From a virus: 64,000 nt of DNA. Shown here piece after piece: positions 308 through 6,386 of this stretch. The stretch lies in the IMG/VR virus record IMGVR_UViG_3300037755_000476. The stretch is one strand, 5' to 3'. Position 1 is the stretch's first letter, and every line of letters begins with the position of its first letter. A program made the position numbers and the translations under genes. Below the pieces are notes generated by a model, which saw only the letters and a program-made list of their open reading frames with translations, was not told where the DNA came from and ran no database searches.

Positions 308-984
308 CGGCAACTTTCCCGAAAAACAATAAAAAAATCGATGAAATGCAGGAAAATCCGATGAAATGTAGTCAAAGGGCGACTTAAGGATGCATGATGC
401 GGGAGCGGGCGGGCGTGGTAATATACTCCCGTGTACAGGCTGGGATACTACTTACGTGCGTATGCGGGAATATAGCCACGATAGGGGCAGGTCATGGCGT
501 TGGTAGATTGTGCCGGGGTGGGTCAAGGCCATCATAGACAGAATCTATAGCAGCAATAACTGCCCATAGACAAAACACATAGAAGGGCAATTTCCTACCC
601 TAATAAAGTTAGTTAAATACCTGTTTAACACACTTTACTTATACATAAACAAGCTATAAAAAACTGGCACAAGGATACACAAGGTATTCGTATAAGCTAT
701 TGGAACACAGATAGTTAGGCCATAGAAAAGCTAAAACTTTTGACAGAAAAATATCAGAACGTACCCCCGCCCCCTCGCAGAAATTCGATTTCCTTTTCGG
801 CCGCGAGCCCTTAAAATATACTATGACTTAAAGCGGTTTAAGCGAAATATCTCTGTGAATTTTTGAAAAATCATGCAAGTTTTAACATTCTTTAACAATG
901 ACGGATTTTATACCGAATTTTTGACCTAAAAATAGACCCAAAAACAGTTCTATTTTAATCTTTTTAAAAATAATTTGATATGAG

Positions 985-1020
985 TTTGGTTTGTATTATA
1001 ATTTTACTTATATTTGTACC
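985..1020 (+). promoter_or_regulatory. Bacteroidota sigmaA promoter for tRNA block 1 (36-bp element identical to 5001-5036)
   Basis: TTTG 985-988, 20-nt spacer, TATATTTG 1009-1016; exact copy at 5001-5036. Confidence 0.85.
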
Positions 1021-1046
1021 TGAACGATTAAAAAGAAACATTTTCA

Positions 1047-1127
1047 ATGTACTCAACAGTCATCATAGCGACAGTAATCAGAACCGGAGGTAAGGATAAA
1101 CCCTCGGGGAGGATTTTTATGCTGTAA
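1047..1127 (+). CDS. Leader peptide 1 (MYSTVIIATVIRTGGKDKPSGRIFML), putative attenuator
   Basis: 26-aa ORF between promoter and terminator; codons ACA, GTA, ATC, ATA, AGA, GGA, GAT, ATG match block 1 tRNAs. Confidence 0.8.
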   Translation: MYSTVIIATVIRTGGKDKPSGRIFML

Positions 1128-1153
1128 TGTCGATAGTACATTAAATTACACAT

Positions 1154-1186
1154 AAACCTTCTCCCTAAAAAGAGAGGGTTTTTTAT
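1154..1186 (+). terminator. Intrinsic terminator/attenuator 1
   Basis: Stem aaaccttctc/gagagggttt followed by a T run. Confidence 0.85.
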
Positions 1187-1276
1187 TGGCCTGTTAGTCT
1201 AGCTGACGAAAACTTGCCTAATAATAAGCCTTCCAACTAATAATCGCTATTATAAGCAGATTTAAGAGTACAATAT

Positions 1277-1450
1277 ATGAGCAGAACGTACAGAAAAAGT
1301 AGAAACGGCTTAAAATTTAGAGAAGGAAGGTATGTCGAAGGAGTTTTTTATAAGTGCCGGTGTGAATATTGTACTGGAATAGATAAGAAGATTCTTGAGG
1401 ATAAAATCCTTGACAAGGAAATGAAACAGGAGTGTAGCTTAATTGGTTAA
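1277..1450 (+). CDS. Small basic protein with CxCxxC (MSRTYRK..., 57 aa)
   Basis: Manually translated ORF; 3' end overlaps tRNA-Ile. Confidence 0.5.
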   Translation: MSRTYRKSRNGLKFREGRYVEGVFYKCRCEYCTGIDKKILEDKILDKEMKQECSLIG

Positions 1451-1501
1451 AGTACTCAGCTGATACCTGAGTGAGTGCAAGTTCGAATCTTGCCACTCCT
1501 A
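1428..1501 (+). tRNA. tRNA-Ile(GAU)
   Basis: Cloverleaf; anticodon arm ctcag-ctGATac-ctgag; TTCGAAT T-loop. Confidence 0.92.
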
Positions 1502-1507
1502 CATAAT

Positions 1508-1586
1508 GCAGAATTCGCATAGTCCGGTCGATTGCGCCTACCTTCCGAGCAGGATATCATCGTGGGTTCAAATCCCACATTCTGCT
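1508..1586 (+). tRNA. tRNA-Gly(UCC)
   Basis: Acceptor gcagaat/attctgc; loop ctTCCga; U73. Confidence 0.88.
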
Positions 1587-1599
1587 CTAATTAAAACAC

Positions 1600-1673
1600 T
1601 GCGGGGTGGACTGGAGAGGCTCCAGCTCAGTCTCATAAGCTGAATGACGTGGGTTCGATTCCCACTCCCGCAA
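1600..1673 (+). tRNA. tRNA with CAU anticodon (elongator Met or Ile2)
   Basis: tcagt-ctCATaa-gctga; lacks the three G-C pairs typical of initiator tRNA. Confidence 0.85.
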
Positions 1674-1690
1674 CTAACAAAACATTAAAT

Positions 1691-2053
1691 ATGAGTGAAA
1701 TAGAAGAAGAGTTAAGAGAATGTAAAACACACGGCCTTGTTTTATATAAAAAATATAGCGAAAGCGAAAATAAAAACGAGTATTCTTTCCGTTGTATGAA
1801 ATGTAGGTCTGAGTATTTAAAGAAAAAATATCAAGAGAGAAAGAAAAGAGCAATTGACTATAAAGGAGGAAAATGTTGTAAATGCGGATATAATAAATGC
1901 GACGCCGCTTTAGAGTTTCATCACTTAGACCCCTTTTCTAAAGACATAACGCCCTCAAAAACTTTAAATAGAAGTTGGGACAACTGTAAAAAAGAGTTAG
2001 ATAAATGTATATTAGTTTGCTCTAATTGTCACAGGGAAATACATAATAGATAG
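1691..2053 (+). CDS. HNH endonuclease with Zn fingers inside tRNA block 1
   Basis: CxxC pairs, LEFHH, CxNCHxEIH; ATG at 1691 (the longer ORF call overlaps a tRNA). Confidence 0.88.
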   Translation: MSEIEEELRECKTHGLVLYKKYSESENKNEYSFRCMKCRSEYLKKKYQERKKRAIDYKGGKCCKCGYNKCDAALEFHHLDPFSKDITPSKTLNRSWDNCKKELDKCILVCSNCHREIHNR

Positions 2054-2118
2054 TGTAGCTTAAAGGTAAAGTGCTTGTCTGTCACACAAGAGAACGGGGG
2101 TCAGTACCCCTACTAGCT
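2049..2118 (+). tRNA. tRNA-Asp(GUC), degenerate
   Basis: cttgt-ctGTCac-acaag; aberrant T-loop (gtcagta), acceptor mismatch; overlaps the HNH stop codon. Confidence 0.65.
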
Positions 2119-2163
2119 GCGAGTTTTTTGGAAGTGCTCTGAACTATATCAAAACTTCCGCAT

Positions 2164-2237
2164 GCTTCTCTGGCTGAATAGGAAATGGCACCTCACTTGT
2201 AATGAGGAGGATACGGGTTCGATTCCTGTGGGGAGCT
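2164..2237 (+). tRNA. tRNA-Thr(UGU)
   Basis: cctca-ctTGTaa-tgagg; TTCGATT T-loop. Confidence 0.92.
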
Positions 2238-2238
2238 C

Positions 2239-2343
2239 AACAGTACCTGAGGCACCTCTCTTTAAGAAGTGTCCCAGCTCAGGTCTTTTGTTTTAACAGT
2301 ACCCGAGCCACCTCTAGTCAGTATCTAAGTGCCCGGGTCTTTT
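2239..2343 (+). ncRNA. Two tandem copies of an unknown hairpin RNA motif (2239-2289, 2295-2343)
   Basis: Shared AACAGTACCYGAGSCACCTCT..AAGTG..GGTCTTTT with compensatory stem changes. Confidence 0.55.
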
Positions 2344-2399
2344 CCAAGGGAGTCAACTACGTGCGTTTTAAAACACAAGCTTAAAGGGCTCCCTTTTTT

Positions 2400-2472
2400 G
2401 CCCCTTTCGTCTAGCGGCTAAGGCTCTTGTTTTACATGCAAGCAATCGTAGGTTCGAGTCCTACAGGGGGTA
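2400..2472 (+). tRNA. tRNA-Val(UAC), irregular anticodon loop
   Basis: gcccctt/agggggt acceptor; cttg-ttTACatg-caag (8-nt loop); TTCGAGT T-loop. Confidence 0.75.
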
Positions 2473-2481
2473 CTAAAATAT

Positions 2482-2561
2482 GCAGGGGTAGCCACAGCAA
2501 TCTTCTAAATTGCTAAGTGTAATCGGAGCTGAAAATGTGGGTTCGAATCCCCCTCCCTGTT
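2482..2561 (+). tRNA. D-armless tRNA-Arg(UCU)-like RNA with long variable region
   Basis: gcagggg/tccctgt acceptor; only 7 nt before a 6-bp stem agcaat-ctTCTaa-attgct; 22-nt variable region; TTCGAAT T-loop. Confidence 0.65.
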
Positions 2562-2566
2562 CAAAT

Positions 2567-2636
2567 TGGGGTAAGCCTAGGTAGGTTAGCGGACCTTATA
2601 TGTCCGTGGGGACGGGTTCGATTCCCTCTACCCCAA
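2567..2636 (+). tRNA. tRNA-Ile(UAU)-like RNA with minimal D-arm
   Basis: tggggta/tacccca acceptor; cggac-ctTATat-gtccg; bulged T-stem. Confidence 0.6.
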
Positions 2637-2640
2637 CAAA

Positions 2641-2672
2641 TTTGGTAGTTACAAAAGAATTTCGTATCTTTG
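2641..2672 (+). promoter_or_regulatory. Bacteroidota promoter
   Basis: TTTG...TATCTTTG, 3 nt before ATG 2676. Confidence 0.75.
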
Positions 2673-2675
2673 ACC

Positions 2676-2960
2676 ATGACGGATTTTATACCTAAAAAGA
2701 CCCAACAGGAGATACACGAAATCAACTTCCAGAACGCCGAGGAGCTGTTACTGTACCACAAGTACCTGTACTACGAGCTCTCCAAGCCGATGGTAACCGA
2801 CCAACACTTCGACCAGCTCGACCAATATGCAAGAAGACTTTCCCAGTACGTATGCCCCAAGCGCTTTCCACCGGAGGAATACGTACACGAGACAATGGTC
2901 GGCTTTGATAAAAATCACCGGTTGTGGCCGAAAGTGAAAGAGAGATTTGGAATAAAATAA
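2676..2960 (+). CDS. Stand-alone NAD-dependent DNA ligase domain Ia-like protein
   Basis: HKYLYYELSKPMVTDQHFDQL resembles the LigA Ia motif (H-YY...P-ISD-EYD-L); no ligase core follows. Confidence 0.65.
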   Translation: MTDFIPKKTQQEIHEINFQNAEELLLYHKYLYYELSKPMVTDQHFDQLDQYARRLSQYVCPKRFPPEEYVHETMVGFDKNHRLWPKVKERFGIK

Positions 2961-2976
2961 AAAAATTGTATAAAAG

Positions 2977-3007
2977 TTTGTAGGTATCAAAAAAAGTTGT
3001 ATATTAG
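2977..3007 (+). promoter_or_regulatory. Promoter for tRNA block 2
   Basis: TTTG 2977-2980, 19-nt spacer, TATATTAG (variant -7 box). Confidence 0.7.
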
Positions 3008-3011
3008 CAGC

Positions 3012-3101
3012 ATGAAAACATTAAGCACATATAATTCCTTTTGGTATTCGAATTGCTCCGGCAATGTTGAAGGGGATTCCTATGTCTACAAACTCATATA
3101 A
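3012..3101 (+). CDS. Leader peptide 2 (MKTLSTYNSFWYSNCSGNVEGDSYVYKLI), putative attenuator
   Basis: 29-aa ORF; core NSFWYSNCS matches block 2 tRNAs (Ser x2, Asn, Trp, Phe, Cys). Confidence 0.82.
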   Translation: MKTLSTYNSFWYSNCSGNVEGDSYVYKLI

Positions 3102-3131
3102 CTATTTTCGTTTTTTGATTTTGATTCATTT

Positions 3132-3161
3132 AACCCTTCGTCTCCAAACGAGGGGTTTTTT
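3132..3161 (+). terminator. Intrinsic terminator/attenuator 2
   Basis: Stem aacccttcg/cgaggggtt plus T run. Confidence 0.88.
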
Positions 3162-3171
3162 GTTTTTATAC

Positions 3172-3255
3172 TGCAACGTAAAGCCAGTGGTTCTGGCAGA
3201 CTGTCTCTAAAACAGTTATTGTAAAAGGGGAGTGGTTCGATTCCGCACGGTGCAA
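3172..3255 (+). tRNA. Amber suppressor tRNA (anticodon CUA), type II-like
   Basis: actgt-ctCTAaa-acagt (anticodon 3207-3209); D-stem gccag/ctggc; long variable region; A73. Confidence 0.8.
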
Positions 3256-3259
3256 CAAT

Positions 3260-3344
3260 TAGTGGGTAGCGCAAAGGTTGCGAACGGGATTTGAACCCCC
3301 GGCTATCGGGTGACTGGTAAGGGTTCGATTCCTTTACCCACTAC
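3260..3344 (+). tRNA. tRNA-Ser(UGA)
   Basis: Loop ttTGAac; paired long variable arm; acceptor+T helix can be 13 bp. Confidence 0.75.
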
Positions 3345-3348
3345 AAAC

Positions 3349-3435
3349 AGAGGGGTGGCAGAGAGGCTTATTGCAGCAGGTTGCTAACTTGCCGAGGTAT
3401 AAACACTTCCGAGGGTTCAAATCCCTTCCCCTCTT
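3349..3435 (+). tRNA. tRNA-Ser(GCU)
   Basis: gcagg-ttGCTaa-cttgc; long variable arm. Confidence 0.92.
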
Positions 3436-3441
3436 CTAAAC

Positions 3442-3527
3442 GACTAGGTTGCCGTAGTGGCCGAACGGTCTGGGCTGTTAACCCAGTGGATAATATCCCA
3501 TCGTAGGTTCGAATCCTACCCTAGTCG
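3442..3527 (+). tRNA. tRNA-Asn(GUU) with long variable arm
   Basis: ctggg-ctGTTaa-cccag; variable arm tggataatatccca; G73. Confidence 0.88.
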
Positions 3528-3535
3528 CTTAAAAT

Positions 3536-3608
3536 GCTTCTCAGCACAATGGTGTGCAGCCGGTCTCCAAAACCGTGCAAGGGCAAGGTTCGATTCCTTG
3601 GGGTCGCG
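3536..3608 (+). tRNA. tRNA-Trp(CCA), mismatched acceptor stem
   Basis: cggt-ctCCAaa-accg; D-stem gcac/gtgc; T-arm intact. Confidence 0.75.
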
Positions 3609-3611
3609 CAG

Positions 3612-3719
3612 ATAAAAACAAGCTTATGCCGTGAAACGGTGTGATGGTCGCTGGATGAAAGCAACGCACTTAATGACCGTGCCCAAAATTGATAAAATTT
3701 CCAGATGCTTGTTTTTTAT
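3612..3719 (+). ncRNA. Unknown structured (possibly pseudoknotted) RNA between tRNA-Trp and tRNA-Phe
   Basis: Closing stem aaaaacaagc/gcttgttttt, GAAA-capped hairpin, ggtc/gacc, gcac/gtgc and ctgga/tccag pairings. Confidence 0.5.
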
Positions 3720-3793
3720 GGGGTTGTAGCTGAGGTGGTAATTAGCGCTGGGCTGAAAACTCAGAGACGGGGGTTCGAATCCCCCCTCCCCCA
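3720..3793 (+). tRNA. tRNA-Phe(GAA)
   Basis: ctggg-ctGAAaa-ctcag; two acceptor mismatches. Confidence 0.82.
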
Positions 3794-3847
3794 CTAAGAG
3801 TTGAAGGGGTATAAAAACAGTTCAACTCTTTTTCGTATATTTGTTAT

Positions 3848-4273
3848 ATGAAAATATGCACAACTTGTAATCAAAGTAAAACACTAGATAATTTTGATTT
3901 TAGAAATAAGGCTAAAAATAAAAGACGAGGCTCTTGTAAAAAGTGTCTTAAAGAGTATTACAGACTAAGGTATAAGAAAGTAGGTAAAGTAAAAGAACAA
4001 ATAAATGCGAGGGGTAAAAGGTGGAGAGAGTATTTATACAAGTTTGTAAATAGATATAAAAGATTGGTTGGGTGCTCTAAGTGTAAAGATAAGAGAGATT
4101 ATGTATTAGAATTTCATCACGTCAGGGATAAGAAAACAGAAATCTGTAGAGCTATATCTAGAGATTTCTCTATGTCTAACCTTAAAGAGGAGATGAGAAA
4201 GTGTGTAGTACTCTGCGCAAATTGCCACAAAGAGCTTCATTATCTAGAACGTTGCGGTACTCAAGAGGATTAG
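3848..4273 (+). CDS. HNH endonuclease with Zn fingers inside tRNA block 2
   Basis: CTTC/CKKC, LEFHH, LCANCHKELH; own TATATTTG promoter at 3836-3843. Confidence 0.88.
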   Translation: MKICTTCNQSKTLDNFDFRNKAKNKRRGSCKKCLKEYYRLRYKKVGKVKEQINARGKRWREYLYKFVNRYKRLVGCSKCKDKRDYVLEFHHVRDKKTEICRAISRDFSMSNLKEEMRKCVVLCANCHKELHYLERCGTQED

Positions 4274-4324
4274 GGGAACTGGCTACAAACTTGTTATTCG
4301 GAGGTTAAAGTCCTGTACGAAATT
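4251..4324 (+). pseudogene. Degenerate tRNA-Cys-like gene (loop ctACAaa)
   Basis: tactcaagagg D-region typical of Cys/Tyr tRNAs; weak acceptor and T stems; overlaps the HNH 3' end. Confidence 0.5.
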
Positions 4325-4395
4325 CTATAGCTTATGCCCCAATTCCATTTAAATTCTTTTTTGTACCTTTACAACTTAACATTAAAAATGTAACA

Positions 4396-4725
4396 ATGGC
4401 AAGAAGAACAACAAAAAACGGGCCGGGGGACAAGGACAAGAAAAAAAAATCCACCTCCAAAGCTAACGACACGATAAGCCCGTACTACGCAGCGGTAAAA
4501 TATGGAAGCTCTCTCGAAAAGAATGCGGCCAAGAAGTCCATGGCAGGATACTTCTCCGGCTCCCCTGCCAACAAAAGAGGAGAGTCCGAGAGCCAGCACA
4601 TGTCCAGAATGGCCAAAAAAGATACTATCCCCAGTGCCAGAAAAGCGAGGGGGGTATATCAGGCAGGTAACTTTGGTCCCAGCATCGGCAAAAAAGCATC
4701 CTCAACCGTAAAAAAGAAAAAGTAA
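4396..4725 (+). CDS. Lys-rich basic protein, unknown function
   Basis: 109-aa ORF with AT-rich upstream region. Confidence 0.65.
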   Translation: MARRTTKNGPGDKDKKKKSTSKANDTISPYYAAVKYGSSLEKNAAKKSMAGYFSGSPANKRGESESQHMSRMAKKDTIPSARKARGVYQAGNFGPSIGKKASSTVKKKK

Positions 4726-4726
4726 T

Positions 4727-4999
4727 ATGAAAAATCTATTCTTAGGACTTGCACTATTGATTTCGTCTATAGTGTTCTCACAGGAGCCCGTTCTGGACAG
4801 CATACAAGTTTTTAAACCTATGCCGGAGCCTGTACTGATAGCCACTATATACGAATACGAAACGTTCTTCGAGAAACTTACAGAAGTGTCCGACAGGACA
4901 GGTGCCAATGAGGTTATCTGCGTATTTTTCTACAAAGAGGATAAAGACTCTCCCCAAAAAACTCTGGTAAAAACTTTTATTAGAAAAAAACAACGATAA
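4727..4999 (+). CDS. Hypothetical exported protein
   Basis: N-terminal signal peptide MKNLFLGLALLISSIVFSQ. Confidence 0.65.
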   Translation: MKNLFLGLALLISSIVFSQEPVLDSIQVFKPMPEPVLIATIYEYETFFEKLTEVSDRTGANEVICVFFYKEDKDSPQKTLVKTFIRKKQR

Positions 5000-5000
5000 A

Positions 5001-5036
5001 TTTGGTTTGTATTATAATTTTACTTATATTTGTACC
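5001..5036 (+). promoter_or_regulatory. Promoter for tRNA block 3 (identical to 985-1020)
   Basis: TTTG...TATATTTG 5025-5032; exact 36-bp repeat. Confidence 0.85.
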
Positions 5037-5039
5037 ATC

Positions 5040-5117
5040 ATGAAAACAACACGATTTGTTGCGGTACGCAACTTACATACACAGCTACTAGAGCAACCGG
5101 AAATAATCGTCTGGTAG
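5040..5117 (+). CDS. Leader peptide 3 (MKTTRFVAVRNLHTQLLEQPEIIVW), putative attenuator
   Basis: 25-aa ORF; core RNLHTQLLEQPE matches block 3 tRNAs (Pro, Glu, Gln, His, Leu-UAG, Arg-ACG). Confidence 0.85.
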   Translation: MKTTRFVAVRNLHTQLLEQPEIIVW

Positions 5118-5159
5118 GGATAGGTATGGTGTGATGTAAGAAACTTATATTATCGTATT

Positions 5160-5194
5160 AAGCCTCCCCGGAAACGTGGGGGCTTTTTTATTTT
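5160..5194 (+). terminator. Intrinsic terminator/attenuator 3
   Basis: aagcctcc..gaaa..gggggctt plus T run, directly before tRNA-Pro. Confidence 0.88.
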
Positions 5195-5268
5195 AGGGGA
5201 GTGACAAAATTGGTGACGTGCCGGCCTTGGAAGCCGGAGATATGTAGGTTCGAGGCCTACCTCCCCTA
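5195..5268 (+). tRNA. tRNA-Pro(UGG)
   Basis: ccggc-ctTGGaa-gccgg. Confidence 0.9.
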
Positions 5269-5316
5269 CAAAGAGACGTTTGGCCGTTTAACTCTTTAAA
5301 AAACAATGGCCCTAAT

Positions 5317-5389
5317 GCTACCATCGTCTAAATGGTCAGGACACAAGACTTTCAATCTTGAAATCGGGTTTCGATTACCCGTGGTAGTA
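5317..5389 (+). tRNA. tRNA-Glu(UUC)
   Basis: caaga-ctTTCaa-tcttg. Confidence 0.92.
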
Positions 5390-5399
5390 CGAATATAAT

Positions 5400-5470
5400 T
5401 GGAGTATGATGTAGTGGTAACATGGTTGGTTTTGAGCCAACTCTCGGAGGTTCGACCCCTTCTGCTCCAA
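5400..5470 (+). tRNA. tRNA-Gln(UUG)
   Basis: gttgg-ttTTGag-ccaac; U1-A72 acceptor. Confidence 0.9.
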
Positions 5471-5477
5471 CTAACAT

Positions 5478-5551
5478 GGTGTCATTGTTGTAAACGGTGA
5501 GCATAGTAGGTTGTGACCTTGCAGGTCTCGGTTCGAATCCGAGGTGACACA
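5478..5551 (+). tRNA. tRNA-His(GUG)
   Basis: gtagg-ttGTGac-cttgc; G-1 encoded. Confidence 0.9.
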
Positions 5552-5558
5552 CATATTT

Positions 5559-5640
5559 ACCGGAGTGACGTAAAAGCGAATGGCAGAGTATCTTGGCTTA
5601 GACCCAAGGGTTTTTGTGGGTTCGAGTCCCACCTCCGGTA
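5559..5640 (+). tRNA. tRNA-Leu(UAG), expanded D-region and short variable loop
   Basis: cttgg-ctTAGac-ccaag; accggag/ctccggt acceptor. Confidence 0.82.
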
Positions 5641-5645
5641 CAAAT

Positions 5646-5716
5646 ACGCCCGTAGTTCAGCGGAAGAATACCAAGCTACGAACTTGGAGACGGGGTTTCG
5701 AATACTCCCGGGCGTT
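5646..5716 (+). tRNA. tRNA-Arg(ACG)
   Basis: ccaag-ctACGaa-cttgg. Confidence 0.92.
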
Positions 5717-5854
5717 CTATACCAATTTCGTACTATTGGGCGTCTTGAAAGAGAGGGCGTCCTTTATCTTTGAATCCTTCCTTCTGTACAGCCTCGCTAC
5801 CTTTTTATTGGGGTCGGAGGCCTTTTCCGATATTTTATGTTTTCTGTAGTTCAT
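5717..5854 (-). CDS. Small basic protein (MNYRKHKIS...KIKDALSFKTPNSTKLV, 45 aa), convergent on tRNA block 3
   Basis: Manual translation; stop codon abuts the tRNA-Arg 3' end. Confidence 0.5.
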   Translation of the reverse strand: MNYRKHKISEKASDPNKKVARLYRRKDSKIKDALSFKTPNSTKLV

Positions 5855-5891
5855 AGTTGCAAGGTAATGATTTTTTTGTTATATTGTATTC

Positions 5892-6386
5892 ATGATAAAA
5901 GGATTTATATTACTCGCCCTTACACTGACCGTCTTCGGTTTCACCTTCGACCACGGCCCCATTAACTACGTCCAAGAACAAAAGATGGGAAGGCCCCACG
6001 TAGAGGCTCGACTACTGAAATACTTTAATGAGCTGGACTCTATCTACGTCTCCAAAGGCATCGTAATAGGCTACTCCAAGGTATCCAGCATACAGAGTAT
6101 GGACTCACTCCCGTACGACCCGGTGTTGCAAGGAAAGTCTTTGGAAGGCCTGTATAATAAGCACACAAATCAAGTGTACATAAACACCTATCAATTGGAT
6201 GCCTTTTTTAAGGGCAAGTACAAAGAGAAGATTTTGCTTATAATGGCACATGAGGTAGGCCACTCACAAGGTATGGGCCACTCTAATGACACCACTTCCA
6301 TAATGCACTACAGTAGTAAGTACGTTTTGGCCCTGCTGGATAACAATAAAATTGAGGACCTTGTGAGCGAGATGTATTTAAATTGA
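5892..6386 (+). CDS. Secreted matrixin/metzincin-type zinc metalloprotease
   Basis: HEVGHSQGMGH (HExxHxxGxxH), Met-turn SIMH, signal peptide. Confidence 0.85.
   Translation: MIKGFILLALTLTVFGFTFDHGPINYVQEQKMGRPHVEARLLKYFNELDSIYVSKGIVIGYSKVSSIQSMDSLPYDPVLQGKSLEGLYNKHTNQVYINTYQLDAFFKGKYKEKILLIMAHEVGHSQGMGHSNDTTSIMHYSSKYVLALLDNNKIEDLVSEMYLN

Follow-up and report, generated by a model that had tools for sequence, protein, structure and literature searches.

What are the two similar elements that stand directly behind the tRNA-Thr gene in the tRNA operon of this phage, and what could such RNAs do there? The initial annotation had described them as two tandem copies of an unknown RNA motif and had proposed that they might be decoy or antitoxin-like RNAs induced together with the tRNAs. 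The element was therefore analyzed within the window, that is, the whole 64,000-nt stretch of viral DNA. The tRNA cluster of the window occupies positions 1428-5717 on the + strand, and the nearest named relatives of the window are the Cellulophaga phages phi38:1, phi40:1, and Calle_1 (Callevirus, Pervagoviridae) and the Maribacter phage Panino. The gene for tRNA-Thr(UGU) lies at 2164-2238 (+ strand; ARAGORN; Rfam tRNA model, 54.9 bits). It is followed on the same strand by the first copy, W1 (2239-2294), and then by the second, W2 (2295-2345), and the 3' processing site of tRNA-Thr falls directly before nucleotide 1 of W1. The tandem arrangement and the shared blocks could be read in the sequence at 2239-2345 as described in the initial annotation, and a repeat finder returned them as well: AACAGTACCTGAGGCACCTCT and AACAGTACCCGAGCCACCTCT were paired at 2239 and 2295 (56-nt spacing, 90% identity), and GCTCAGGTCTTTT and GCCCGGGTCTTTT at 2277 and 2331. 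The blocks common to W1 and W2 are AACAGTACC, CACCTCT, AAGTG, and GGTCTTTT, and the exact AACAGTACC occurs at only two places in the 64 kb, namely W1 and W2.

Folding and covariance models assigned to W1 the full form of an abiF-type (AbiF antitoxin-like) RNA and to W2 a second, reduced form. The layout of this RNA family consists of a 5' AACAGUAC tail, a 7-bp outer stem (P1), a short inner stem (P2; CAC/GUG), a CUCU-led loop, and a 5-nt 3' bulge (CCCAG), followed by GGUCUUUU. The parts of W1 are the 5' tail AACAGU (2239-2244), a 7-bp P1 (ACCUGAG/CUCAGGU; 2245-2251 with 2278-2284), P2 (GCACCU/AAGUGU, including a C.A mismatch; 2252-2257 with 2267-2272), the apical loop (2258-2266), the 3' bulge CCCAG (2273-2277), and the tail CUUUUGUUUU (2285-2294). 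W2 is composed of a 5' tail (2295-2300), a 5-bp P1 (ACCCG at 2301-2305 with CGGGU at 2334-2338), P2 (CAC at 2309-2311 with GUG at 2329-2331), an apical loop (2314-2326), and the tail CUUUUCC; it has only CC at 2332-2333 in place of the 5-nt bulge. The two copies are unequal in that the CCCAG bulge of W1 and of most relatives is missing from W2. The predicted folding energies were -16 kcal/mol for W1 (z -2.2) and -11.6 kcal/mol for W2 (z -2.1). A coding reading of the element was also considered and rejected: the 44-aa and 60-aa open reading frames (ORFs) start inside tRNA-Thr, the 60-aa ORF over the element had no Pfam match, and the covarying stems, together with length changes of 5-9 nt between copies, disfavor it.

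Behind W2 comes a third hairpin with six T in a row (2346-2399, + strand; stem 2346-2354 with 2387-2395; -15.1 kcal/mol), and the next gene downstream is tRNA-Val(UAC) (2400-2473, + strand; ARAGORN). The covariance models gave no match on this hairpin, which looks like an ordinary terminator and not like an abiF-type RNA. In phi38:1, Calle_1, and the metagenomic phage locus L229, the post-Thr copy is likewise followed in this position by a hairpin with a T-run. There the hairpin is GC-clamped and keeps the loop AGCGARUACUAGAURUCGUKAACAA (L019:3806-3865 for phi38:1; also L002 at about 3127-3185 and L229 at about 246-285); it may be another small conserved RNA element, and the loop of the window's hairpin differs from it. 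Elsewhere in the cluster, tRNA-like Rfam matches without an ARAGORN call were present at 2049-2118 (40.1 bits), 2482-2561 (28.9 bits; a tRNA-Arg(UCU)-like gene), and 5582-5640 (22.2 bits), and the tRNA-Sec model gave 20 bits at 3536-3604. Inspection by eye identifies 2049-2118 as tRNA-Asp(GUC) and 3536-3604 as tRNA-Trp(CCA). From these Rfam-only matches it follows that the cluster has more tRNAs than the 16 called. An amber-suppressor tRNA (anticodon CUA) with a long variable arm lies at 3172-3256; its slot is taken by tRNA-Tyr(GTA), before tRNA-Ser(UGA), in the close relative G001. The idea that tRNA(CUA) is a one-base derivative of this tRNA-Tyr was rejected, as the alignment shows divergence along most of the length.

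Of the 31-letter words sampled from the window, 45% recur in G001. This relative has no copy of the motif, and positions 1555-2540 of the window, that is, the module from tRNA-Met to tRNA-Val and beyond, are missing from it entirely; 96 nt stand in their place. This block contains tRNA-Met, the ORF at 1691-2053, tRNA-Asp, tRNA-Thr, W1, W2, the hairpin, tRNA-Val, and the tRNA-Arg-like gene. Considering that all of it is missing in G001, the module is accessory, which suggests a mobile or accessory unit of tRNAs and decoy. By eye, the ORF at 1691-2053 carries an HNH-like signature (EFHHLDP...CSNCHREIH); Pfam gave no match for the HNH-like ORFs at 1691-2053 and 3848-4273.

Further phage copies were collected by pattern scans of IMG/VR and metagenomes and were checked with covariance models. 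The first IMG/VR pattern (ACAGTACC..GGTCTTTT) was too loose, and almost all of its hits, in at least 118 loci, were due to chance. Both phi38:1 and Calle_1 carry the motif after tRNA-Val, with P1 CCUACC/GGUAGG (L001:3352-3413 and L002:3353-3414 in Callevirus), and a more divergent copy after tRNA-Thr, in which P2 is CGC/GCG instead of CAC/GUG, a compensatory change. Other loci have a copy between tRNA-Thr and tRNA-Val (L207 and L226), two copies flanking tRNA-Thr (L229), a copy after tRNA-Ile (L183), or a copy after tRNA-Met (L185), and L144 and L148 hold further ones. The copies of L139, L196, and L216 follow a Bacteroidota-type TAnnTTTG box of their own, from which transcription is expected to start at the first A of the motif. 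The phage copies are found 0-5 nt behind tRNA-Thr, tRNA-Val, tRNA-Ile, or tRNA-Met, or behind their own promoter; orphan copies recur in marine phages, mostly directly 3' of a tRNA. The contig with the L148 copy also has a group I intron match (L148:4461-4737, - strand, 60 bits).

The alignments of these copies bear out the covariation of the outer stems that had been read from the window alone (ACCUGAG/CUCAGGU vs. ACCCG/CGGGU). Compensatory changes were found in all seven P1 pairs of the phage-only alignment A10 (13 copies), 100% of its P1 cells were paired, and none of 500 shuffles reached the observed value on any measure. Alignment A6 had 88% of cells paired, with compensatory changes in six of the seven P1 pairs and in one P2 pair (A-U to G-C). 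Homologs with covariation are thus present in both alignments, and the agreement between the copies goes far beyond chance. The 5' tail, P2, and the bulge were near-constant across the 13 phage copies.

The identity of the motif was revealed by loci of bacteria and mobile elements in which it precedes a toxin gene. At locus L140, the decisive lead, the motif is preceded by a TTGACT-17-TATAAT promoter and followed by an ORF, the start of which is about 15 nt past the U-run. The product of this ORF is Pfam Abi_2 (E 9e-51) and matches the Prevotellaceae AbiF structure 8VZ6 (E 1.6e-32). Five further Abi_2 loci, which represent four homologous proteins about 60% identical to the L140 protein, all have the motif (AACAGGACCUCCCGCACCUCU...AUGUGUCCCAGGGAGGACAUUUUUUU) in the same place. 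Altogether, it was found between promoter and Abi_2/AbiF gene in 6 of 6 Clostridia-type loci and in about 20 Flavobacteriales loci. The toxin-linked sequence type closest to the phage copies (GCACCUCU...AUGUGUCCCAG) belongs to gut Clostridia-like loci, not to marine Flavobacteriia. Abi_2 was present in 18 of 401 sampled Flavobacteriales genomes and in 34 of 401 sampled in one family of this order (that of genome G137). The higher-scoring Flavobacteriales Abi_2 clade has an RNA of the same build after a TAnnTTTG box, before the gene and on the same strand, an example being AACAGUACACACCACGCU...AGCGUMCCAGGGUGUGUCUUUUG. P2 is CGCU/AGCG or AGC/GCU in the host RNAs, whereas it is CAC/GUG in the phage copies. 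No Bacteroidota Abi_2 gene was seen with the exact W-type sequence in front of it. Moreover, the exact W-type pattern, searched in one genome for each of 185,579 species, gave three matches, none of them with a closing stem, which is chance-like, and a locus search in IMG/VR with the L140 Abi_2 protein returned only L140 itself.

Several Flavobacteriales loci showed other arrangements. At L164, L165, and L238, the RNA upstream of Abi_2 is bulge-less (AACAGUACCCG.. CWGCAUACCRUWAGAWCUGCU ..CGGGUCAUU) and resembles W2 in its AACAGUACCCG start and in the lack of a 3' bulge. A match to the Flavo-1 RNA (L181:2370-2457, + strand, 78 bits) adjoins a Flavobacteriales Abi_2 locus. A second Abi_2 clade (L172-L178 and L245-L258) is marked by lower Pfam scores and an N-terminus like MGNIATT; it is mostly without an abiF-type RNA upstream, with weak matches before L257 and L258 (21.3 bits each), and may consist of AbiD/F relatives under other control.

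The relationship between the phage copies and the toxin-linked RNAs was also recovered by covariance models. R3, a model made from 18 toxin-linked RNAs only (alignment A9, all directly upstream of Abi_2, though R2, a model that contained phage copies, served to select and align them), gave W1 the best score of the 64-kb window (51.0 bits, E 8e-11), with W2 in second place (19.9 bits, E 0.02) and 15.4 bits for the match after that. The other phage copies were recovered by R3 as well. With the other models, W1 scored 66.9 bits (R1) and 63.8 bits (R2), and W2 scored 54.4 bits (R2). In contrast, the curated abiF family RF03085 gave no match at E <= 10 on window positions 900-6200, on 2236-2350 alone, or on the Calle_1 copies, and the whole of Rfam at the same threshold identified no family on the copies, the single hit being a chance microRNA match of 13 bits. 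W1 and W2 fall short of the RF03085 gathering score (37 bits) and so lie outside the curated model. Even host RNAs came only near this threshold (34.8 bits for L163, and 30.6 and 23.5 bits for the other two, L171 and L167; vs. 37). The printed consensus of RF03085 nevertheless has the layout P1, A, P2, CUCU loop, 6-nt bulge, and P1'; every element of the abiF hairpin layout is present in W1, and all but the bulge in W2. Since RF03085 shares the architecture yet misses both copies, they form a divergent subgroup. We therefore place W1 among the abiF-type RNAs as a divergent member and W2 as a reduced one. The label of an unknown RNA motif holds only in part: the abiF motif is known, and the copies are a divergent subgroup of it that escapes Rfam.

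The toxin itself is absent. When the window was translated in six frames and searched with two HMMs, one of them broad and both run with filters off, no Abi_2 was detected (best E 1.2). PF07751 was likewise absent from three complete genomes, those of phi38:1, Calle_1, and G005 (a 47-kb DTR phage), and the metagenomic loci carrying the motif had no Abi_2 either. Accordingly, W1 and W2 are orphans, as there is no Abi_2 gene in the phage. A phage RNA that is homologous to a host antitoxin and travels without the cognate toxin is what an antitoxin mimic looks like. The antitoxin-like identity proposed in the initial annotation has thus gained a basis, in that the motif stands directly upstream of Abi_2/AbiF genes in bacteria and here lacks the toxin gene; judging from these comparisons, a decoy function would fit.

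The 5' ends of such RNAs could be followed in public RNA-seq data of phi38:1 infection, in which contigs cover the whole tRNA region in four runs. These data are assembled contigs from a related phage, with tagged 5' ends from one run; they inform on 5' ends and not on 3' ends, abundance, or the joining of both copies in one molecule. In run X3, an oligo ending in ...GAGTACATGGG, which we take to be the SMART template-switch oligo, was fused directly before L019:3521, 3757, and 4040. Each of the three follows immediately on a tRNA 3' end called by ARAGORN (tRNA-Met, tRNA-Thr, and tRNA-Val), and 3757 and 4040 are also nucleotide 1 of the two abiF-type copies of phi38:1. Strand-invasion artefacts are disfavored by the bases before 3757 and 4040, CTC and TAC instead of GGG. 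The phi38:1 homologs thus have RNA 5' ends at motif nucleotide 1, which goes against the refuting case of the initial annotation, namely that discrete RNAs are not expressed. These results indicate that the conserved 5' AACAG end arises by processing of the tRNA 3' end, and by position, window 2239 is the same site. The RNA contigs of phi38:1 also run through both homologous copies. A fourth tagged RNA 5' end (L019:3882) lies inside the Thr-Val spacer and not behind a tRNA; it may be the transcription start of a unit made of a short ORF and tRNA-Val.

What is known of AbiF gives this arrangement a possible meaning. AbiF, a HEPN RNase, acts as the toxin of a type III toxin-antitoxin system, and its active site is blocked when it is bound by a small RNA encoded just upstream of its gene; the AbiF of Prevotellaceae is a dimer with one RNA per subunit, in which single-stranded bulge nucleotides are reported to be inhibitory (PMC12737573; PMC13064643). 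The RNA RCd22 of C. difficile has two abiF motifs in one molecule and neutralises its toxin in cis and in trans; its stems are needed, while their sequence is not (10.1101/2025.04.15.648962). On this basis, W1 and W2 are probably orphan phage-borne AbiF antitoxin RNAs, that is, decoys that would disarm the AbiF of the host, and this is the reading we favor. The model for them is the bacterial RNA, which is transcribed just upstream of the Abi_2/AbiF HEPN RNase gene, binds the toxin dimer, and blocks its active site. In the phage, the RNA stands directly behind tRNA-Thr in the tRNA operon, and from this position W1 and W2 would be made in quantity with the tRNAs. Processing of the tRNA 3' end would then free the conserved 5' AACAG end. 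As host transcription collapses, the host's own labile antitoxin would run out, and the phage RNA would keep AbiF neutralised, so that abortive infection would be prevented. With starts 56 nt apart, W1 and W2 may each occupy one subunit of an AbiF dimer, as reported for the two-motif RCd22. Binding and neutralisation of AbiF by W1 and W2 are inferred here. Several points count against decoys of this kind. RF03085 misses both copies, no AbiF locus of Bacteroidota was seen with the exact W-type P2, and the closest toxin-linked sequence type is that of the Clostridia-like loci. W2 is without the single-stranded bulge reported to block the AbiF active site (PMC12737573), and a P1 hairpin with a U-run could serve simply as a terminator.

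The last of these points leads to the proposal that the copies are structural punctuation only, that is, partial intrinsic terminators or processing spacers of the tRNA operon without any function in trans. Both copies do end in a GC-containing stem followed by CUUUU (a 7-bp P1 and then CUUUUGUUUU in W1, a 5-bp P1 and then CUUUUCC in W2), a third terminator-like hairpin stands at 2346-2399, and the hairpin of the host locus doubles as a terminator before abiF (10.1101/2025.04.15.648962). However, a terminator needs no invariant 5' AACAGUAC tail, no P2 with a C.A mismatch, and no CCMAG bulge, and it is these parts, the tail, P2, and the bulge, that are kept in at least 10 phage lineages while P1 covaries freely. 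Moreover, a simple terminator scan flagged neither copy, the enclosed part being larger than the loop limit of the scan, and the phi38:1 RNA contigs read through both copies. A scan for a promoter before W2 found none. Punctuation alone is therefore an unlikely account of the element. A further reading is a cis-acting attenuator, perhaps responsive to a protein, which would control read-through into tRNA-Val, the tRNA-Arg-like gene, and tRNA-Ile. RCd22 is indeed reported to lower abiF transcription via premature termination (10.1101/2025.04.15.648962). Nevertheless, the copies with their own promoter (L139, L196, and L216) have no co-oriented gene directly downstream, both neighbouring ORFs of L139 being on the opposite strand, and among the phages the position varies (after Thr, Val, Ile, or Met) as does the number, with one or two copies per phage. 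We consider an attenuator quite improbable.

The lack of a toxin gene could also mean that the copies are neutral passengers, left from a captured AbiF toxin-antitoxin module that lost its toxin gene and is decaying. It would agree with this that abiF systems occur in prophages (10.1101/2025.04.15.648962), that W2, which lacks the bulge and reaches only 19.9 bits with R3, is degenerate, and that the module is missing in the close relative G001. Purifying selection is indicated, on the contrary, by the compensatory changes in every P1 pair and the strict conservation of unpaired bases across divergent phages without a toxin, and the three complete genomes have no trace of Abi_2, so that decay of a captured module is very unlikely. 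Another thought is that the RNAs are partners of an unrecognised phage protein, or that they redirect the host AbiF, the Cas13 ancestor, for the benefit of the phage. In favor of it, the parts that face the protein are conserved, whereas the apical loops vary from copy to copy and from phage to phage. AbiF is also reported to process its RNA and to have given rise to the RNA-guided Cas13 (PMC12737573). On the other hand, the window encodes no Abi_2-like protein, even by the broad HMM with filters off, and to this thought we assign very little weight. Equally slight is the chance that phages of Flavobacteriia carry a small, tRNA-processed array of differing AbiF-binding RNAs whose variable loops reprogram or redirect the host AbiF, e.g., against transcripts of the host or of competitors. 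Such an array would comprise a bulged type, W1, and a bulge-less type, W2, the latter like the host class of L164, L165, and L238.

Comparison with known systems separates what is familiar in the decoy reading from what is new. The abiF motif RNA (RF03085) also goes by the names of AbiFr (for the Prevotellaceae AbiF, PDB 8VZ6) and the RCd22 motifs. The phage RNAs share with it an outer stem of 6-7 bp, an inner stem of 3 bp, a loop that begins with CUCU, a 3' bulge of 5-6 nt, a U-run, and a 5' AAYAGUAC lead at the transcript start, and their tandem arrangement is like that of RCd22, in which the motif starts are 52 nt apart (vs. 56 nt here). They differ from it in that no abiF/Abi_2 gene lies downstream or elsewhere in the phage, in that the 5' end is set by tRNA processing and not by a promoter, and in their inner stem (CAC/GUG vs. 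AGC/GCU) and bulge (CCCAG vs. CAAAUC, with W2 bulge-less). The differences in inner stem and bulge explain why RF03085 gave no match.

Comparable phage RNAs have been reported. The pseudo-ToxI of the Pectobacterium phage PhiTE is an antitoxin mimic whose role in escape from abortive infection was shown experimentally (PMC3475682). Like W1 and W2, it is a phage RNA that resembles a host type III antitoxin and has no toxin partner. Unlike them, it belongs to the 36-nt repeats of ToxI and to ToxN, not to an abiF hairpin and a HEPN AbiF, and escape, which is shown for PhiTE, would here be a prediction. The lytic cyanophage S-CREM1 has a solo canonical abiF match for which no mechanism was given, and Rfam lists abiF RNAs in three phage genomes (PMC9964418). 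S-CREM1 is likewise a tRNA-carrying lytic phage with an abiF-type RNA and without a reported abiF gene, but its RNA is canonical RF03085 (51.6 bits), whereas W1 and W2 are of a divergent subgroup, are tandem, and abut a tRNA. Beyond this bare Rfam hit in S-CREM1, phage-borne AbiF antitoxin copies acting in counter-defence were not found in the literature that we searched. In addition, the tRNA cluster of phage T4 yields stable small RNAs of about 120-140 nt (species 1 and 2; rnaC and rnaD), which are released by tRNA processing enzymes. The T4 RNAs are not known to have a function. They are similar to W1 and W2 as non-tRNA small RNAs inside a phage tRNA operon, without any relation in sequence or structure. 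The RNA family and the decoy principle are already known, and the new elements are the divergent subgroup, its orphan tandem use, and the tRNA-abutted, processing-defined design in phages of marine Flavobacteriia.

AbiF is a widespread abortive-infection toxin with a small-RNA antidote and is the proposed ancestor of Cas13. In the design described here, the decoy would ride on the tRNA operon, and host tRNA 3' processing would give it an exact 5' end; the same design recurs in many phages of marine Flavobacteriia. If the decoy reading is true, it adds to the few RNA-based means of anti-defence that are known (pseudo-ToxI and RNA anti-CRISPRs), and it would explain some of the "extra" RNAs of phage tRNA clusters. 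These RNAs would then also be natural inhibitors for AbiF-like and small Cas13-like nucleases.
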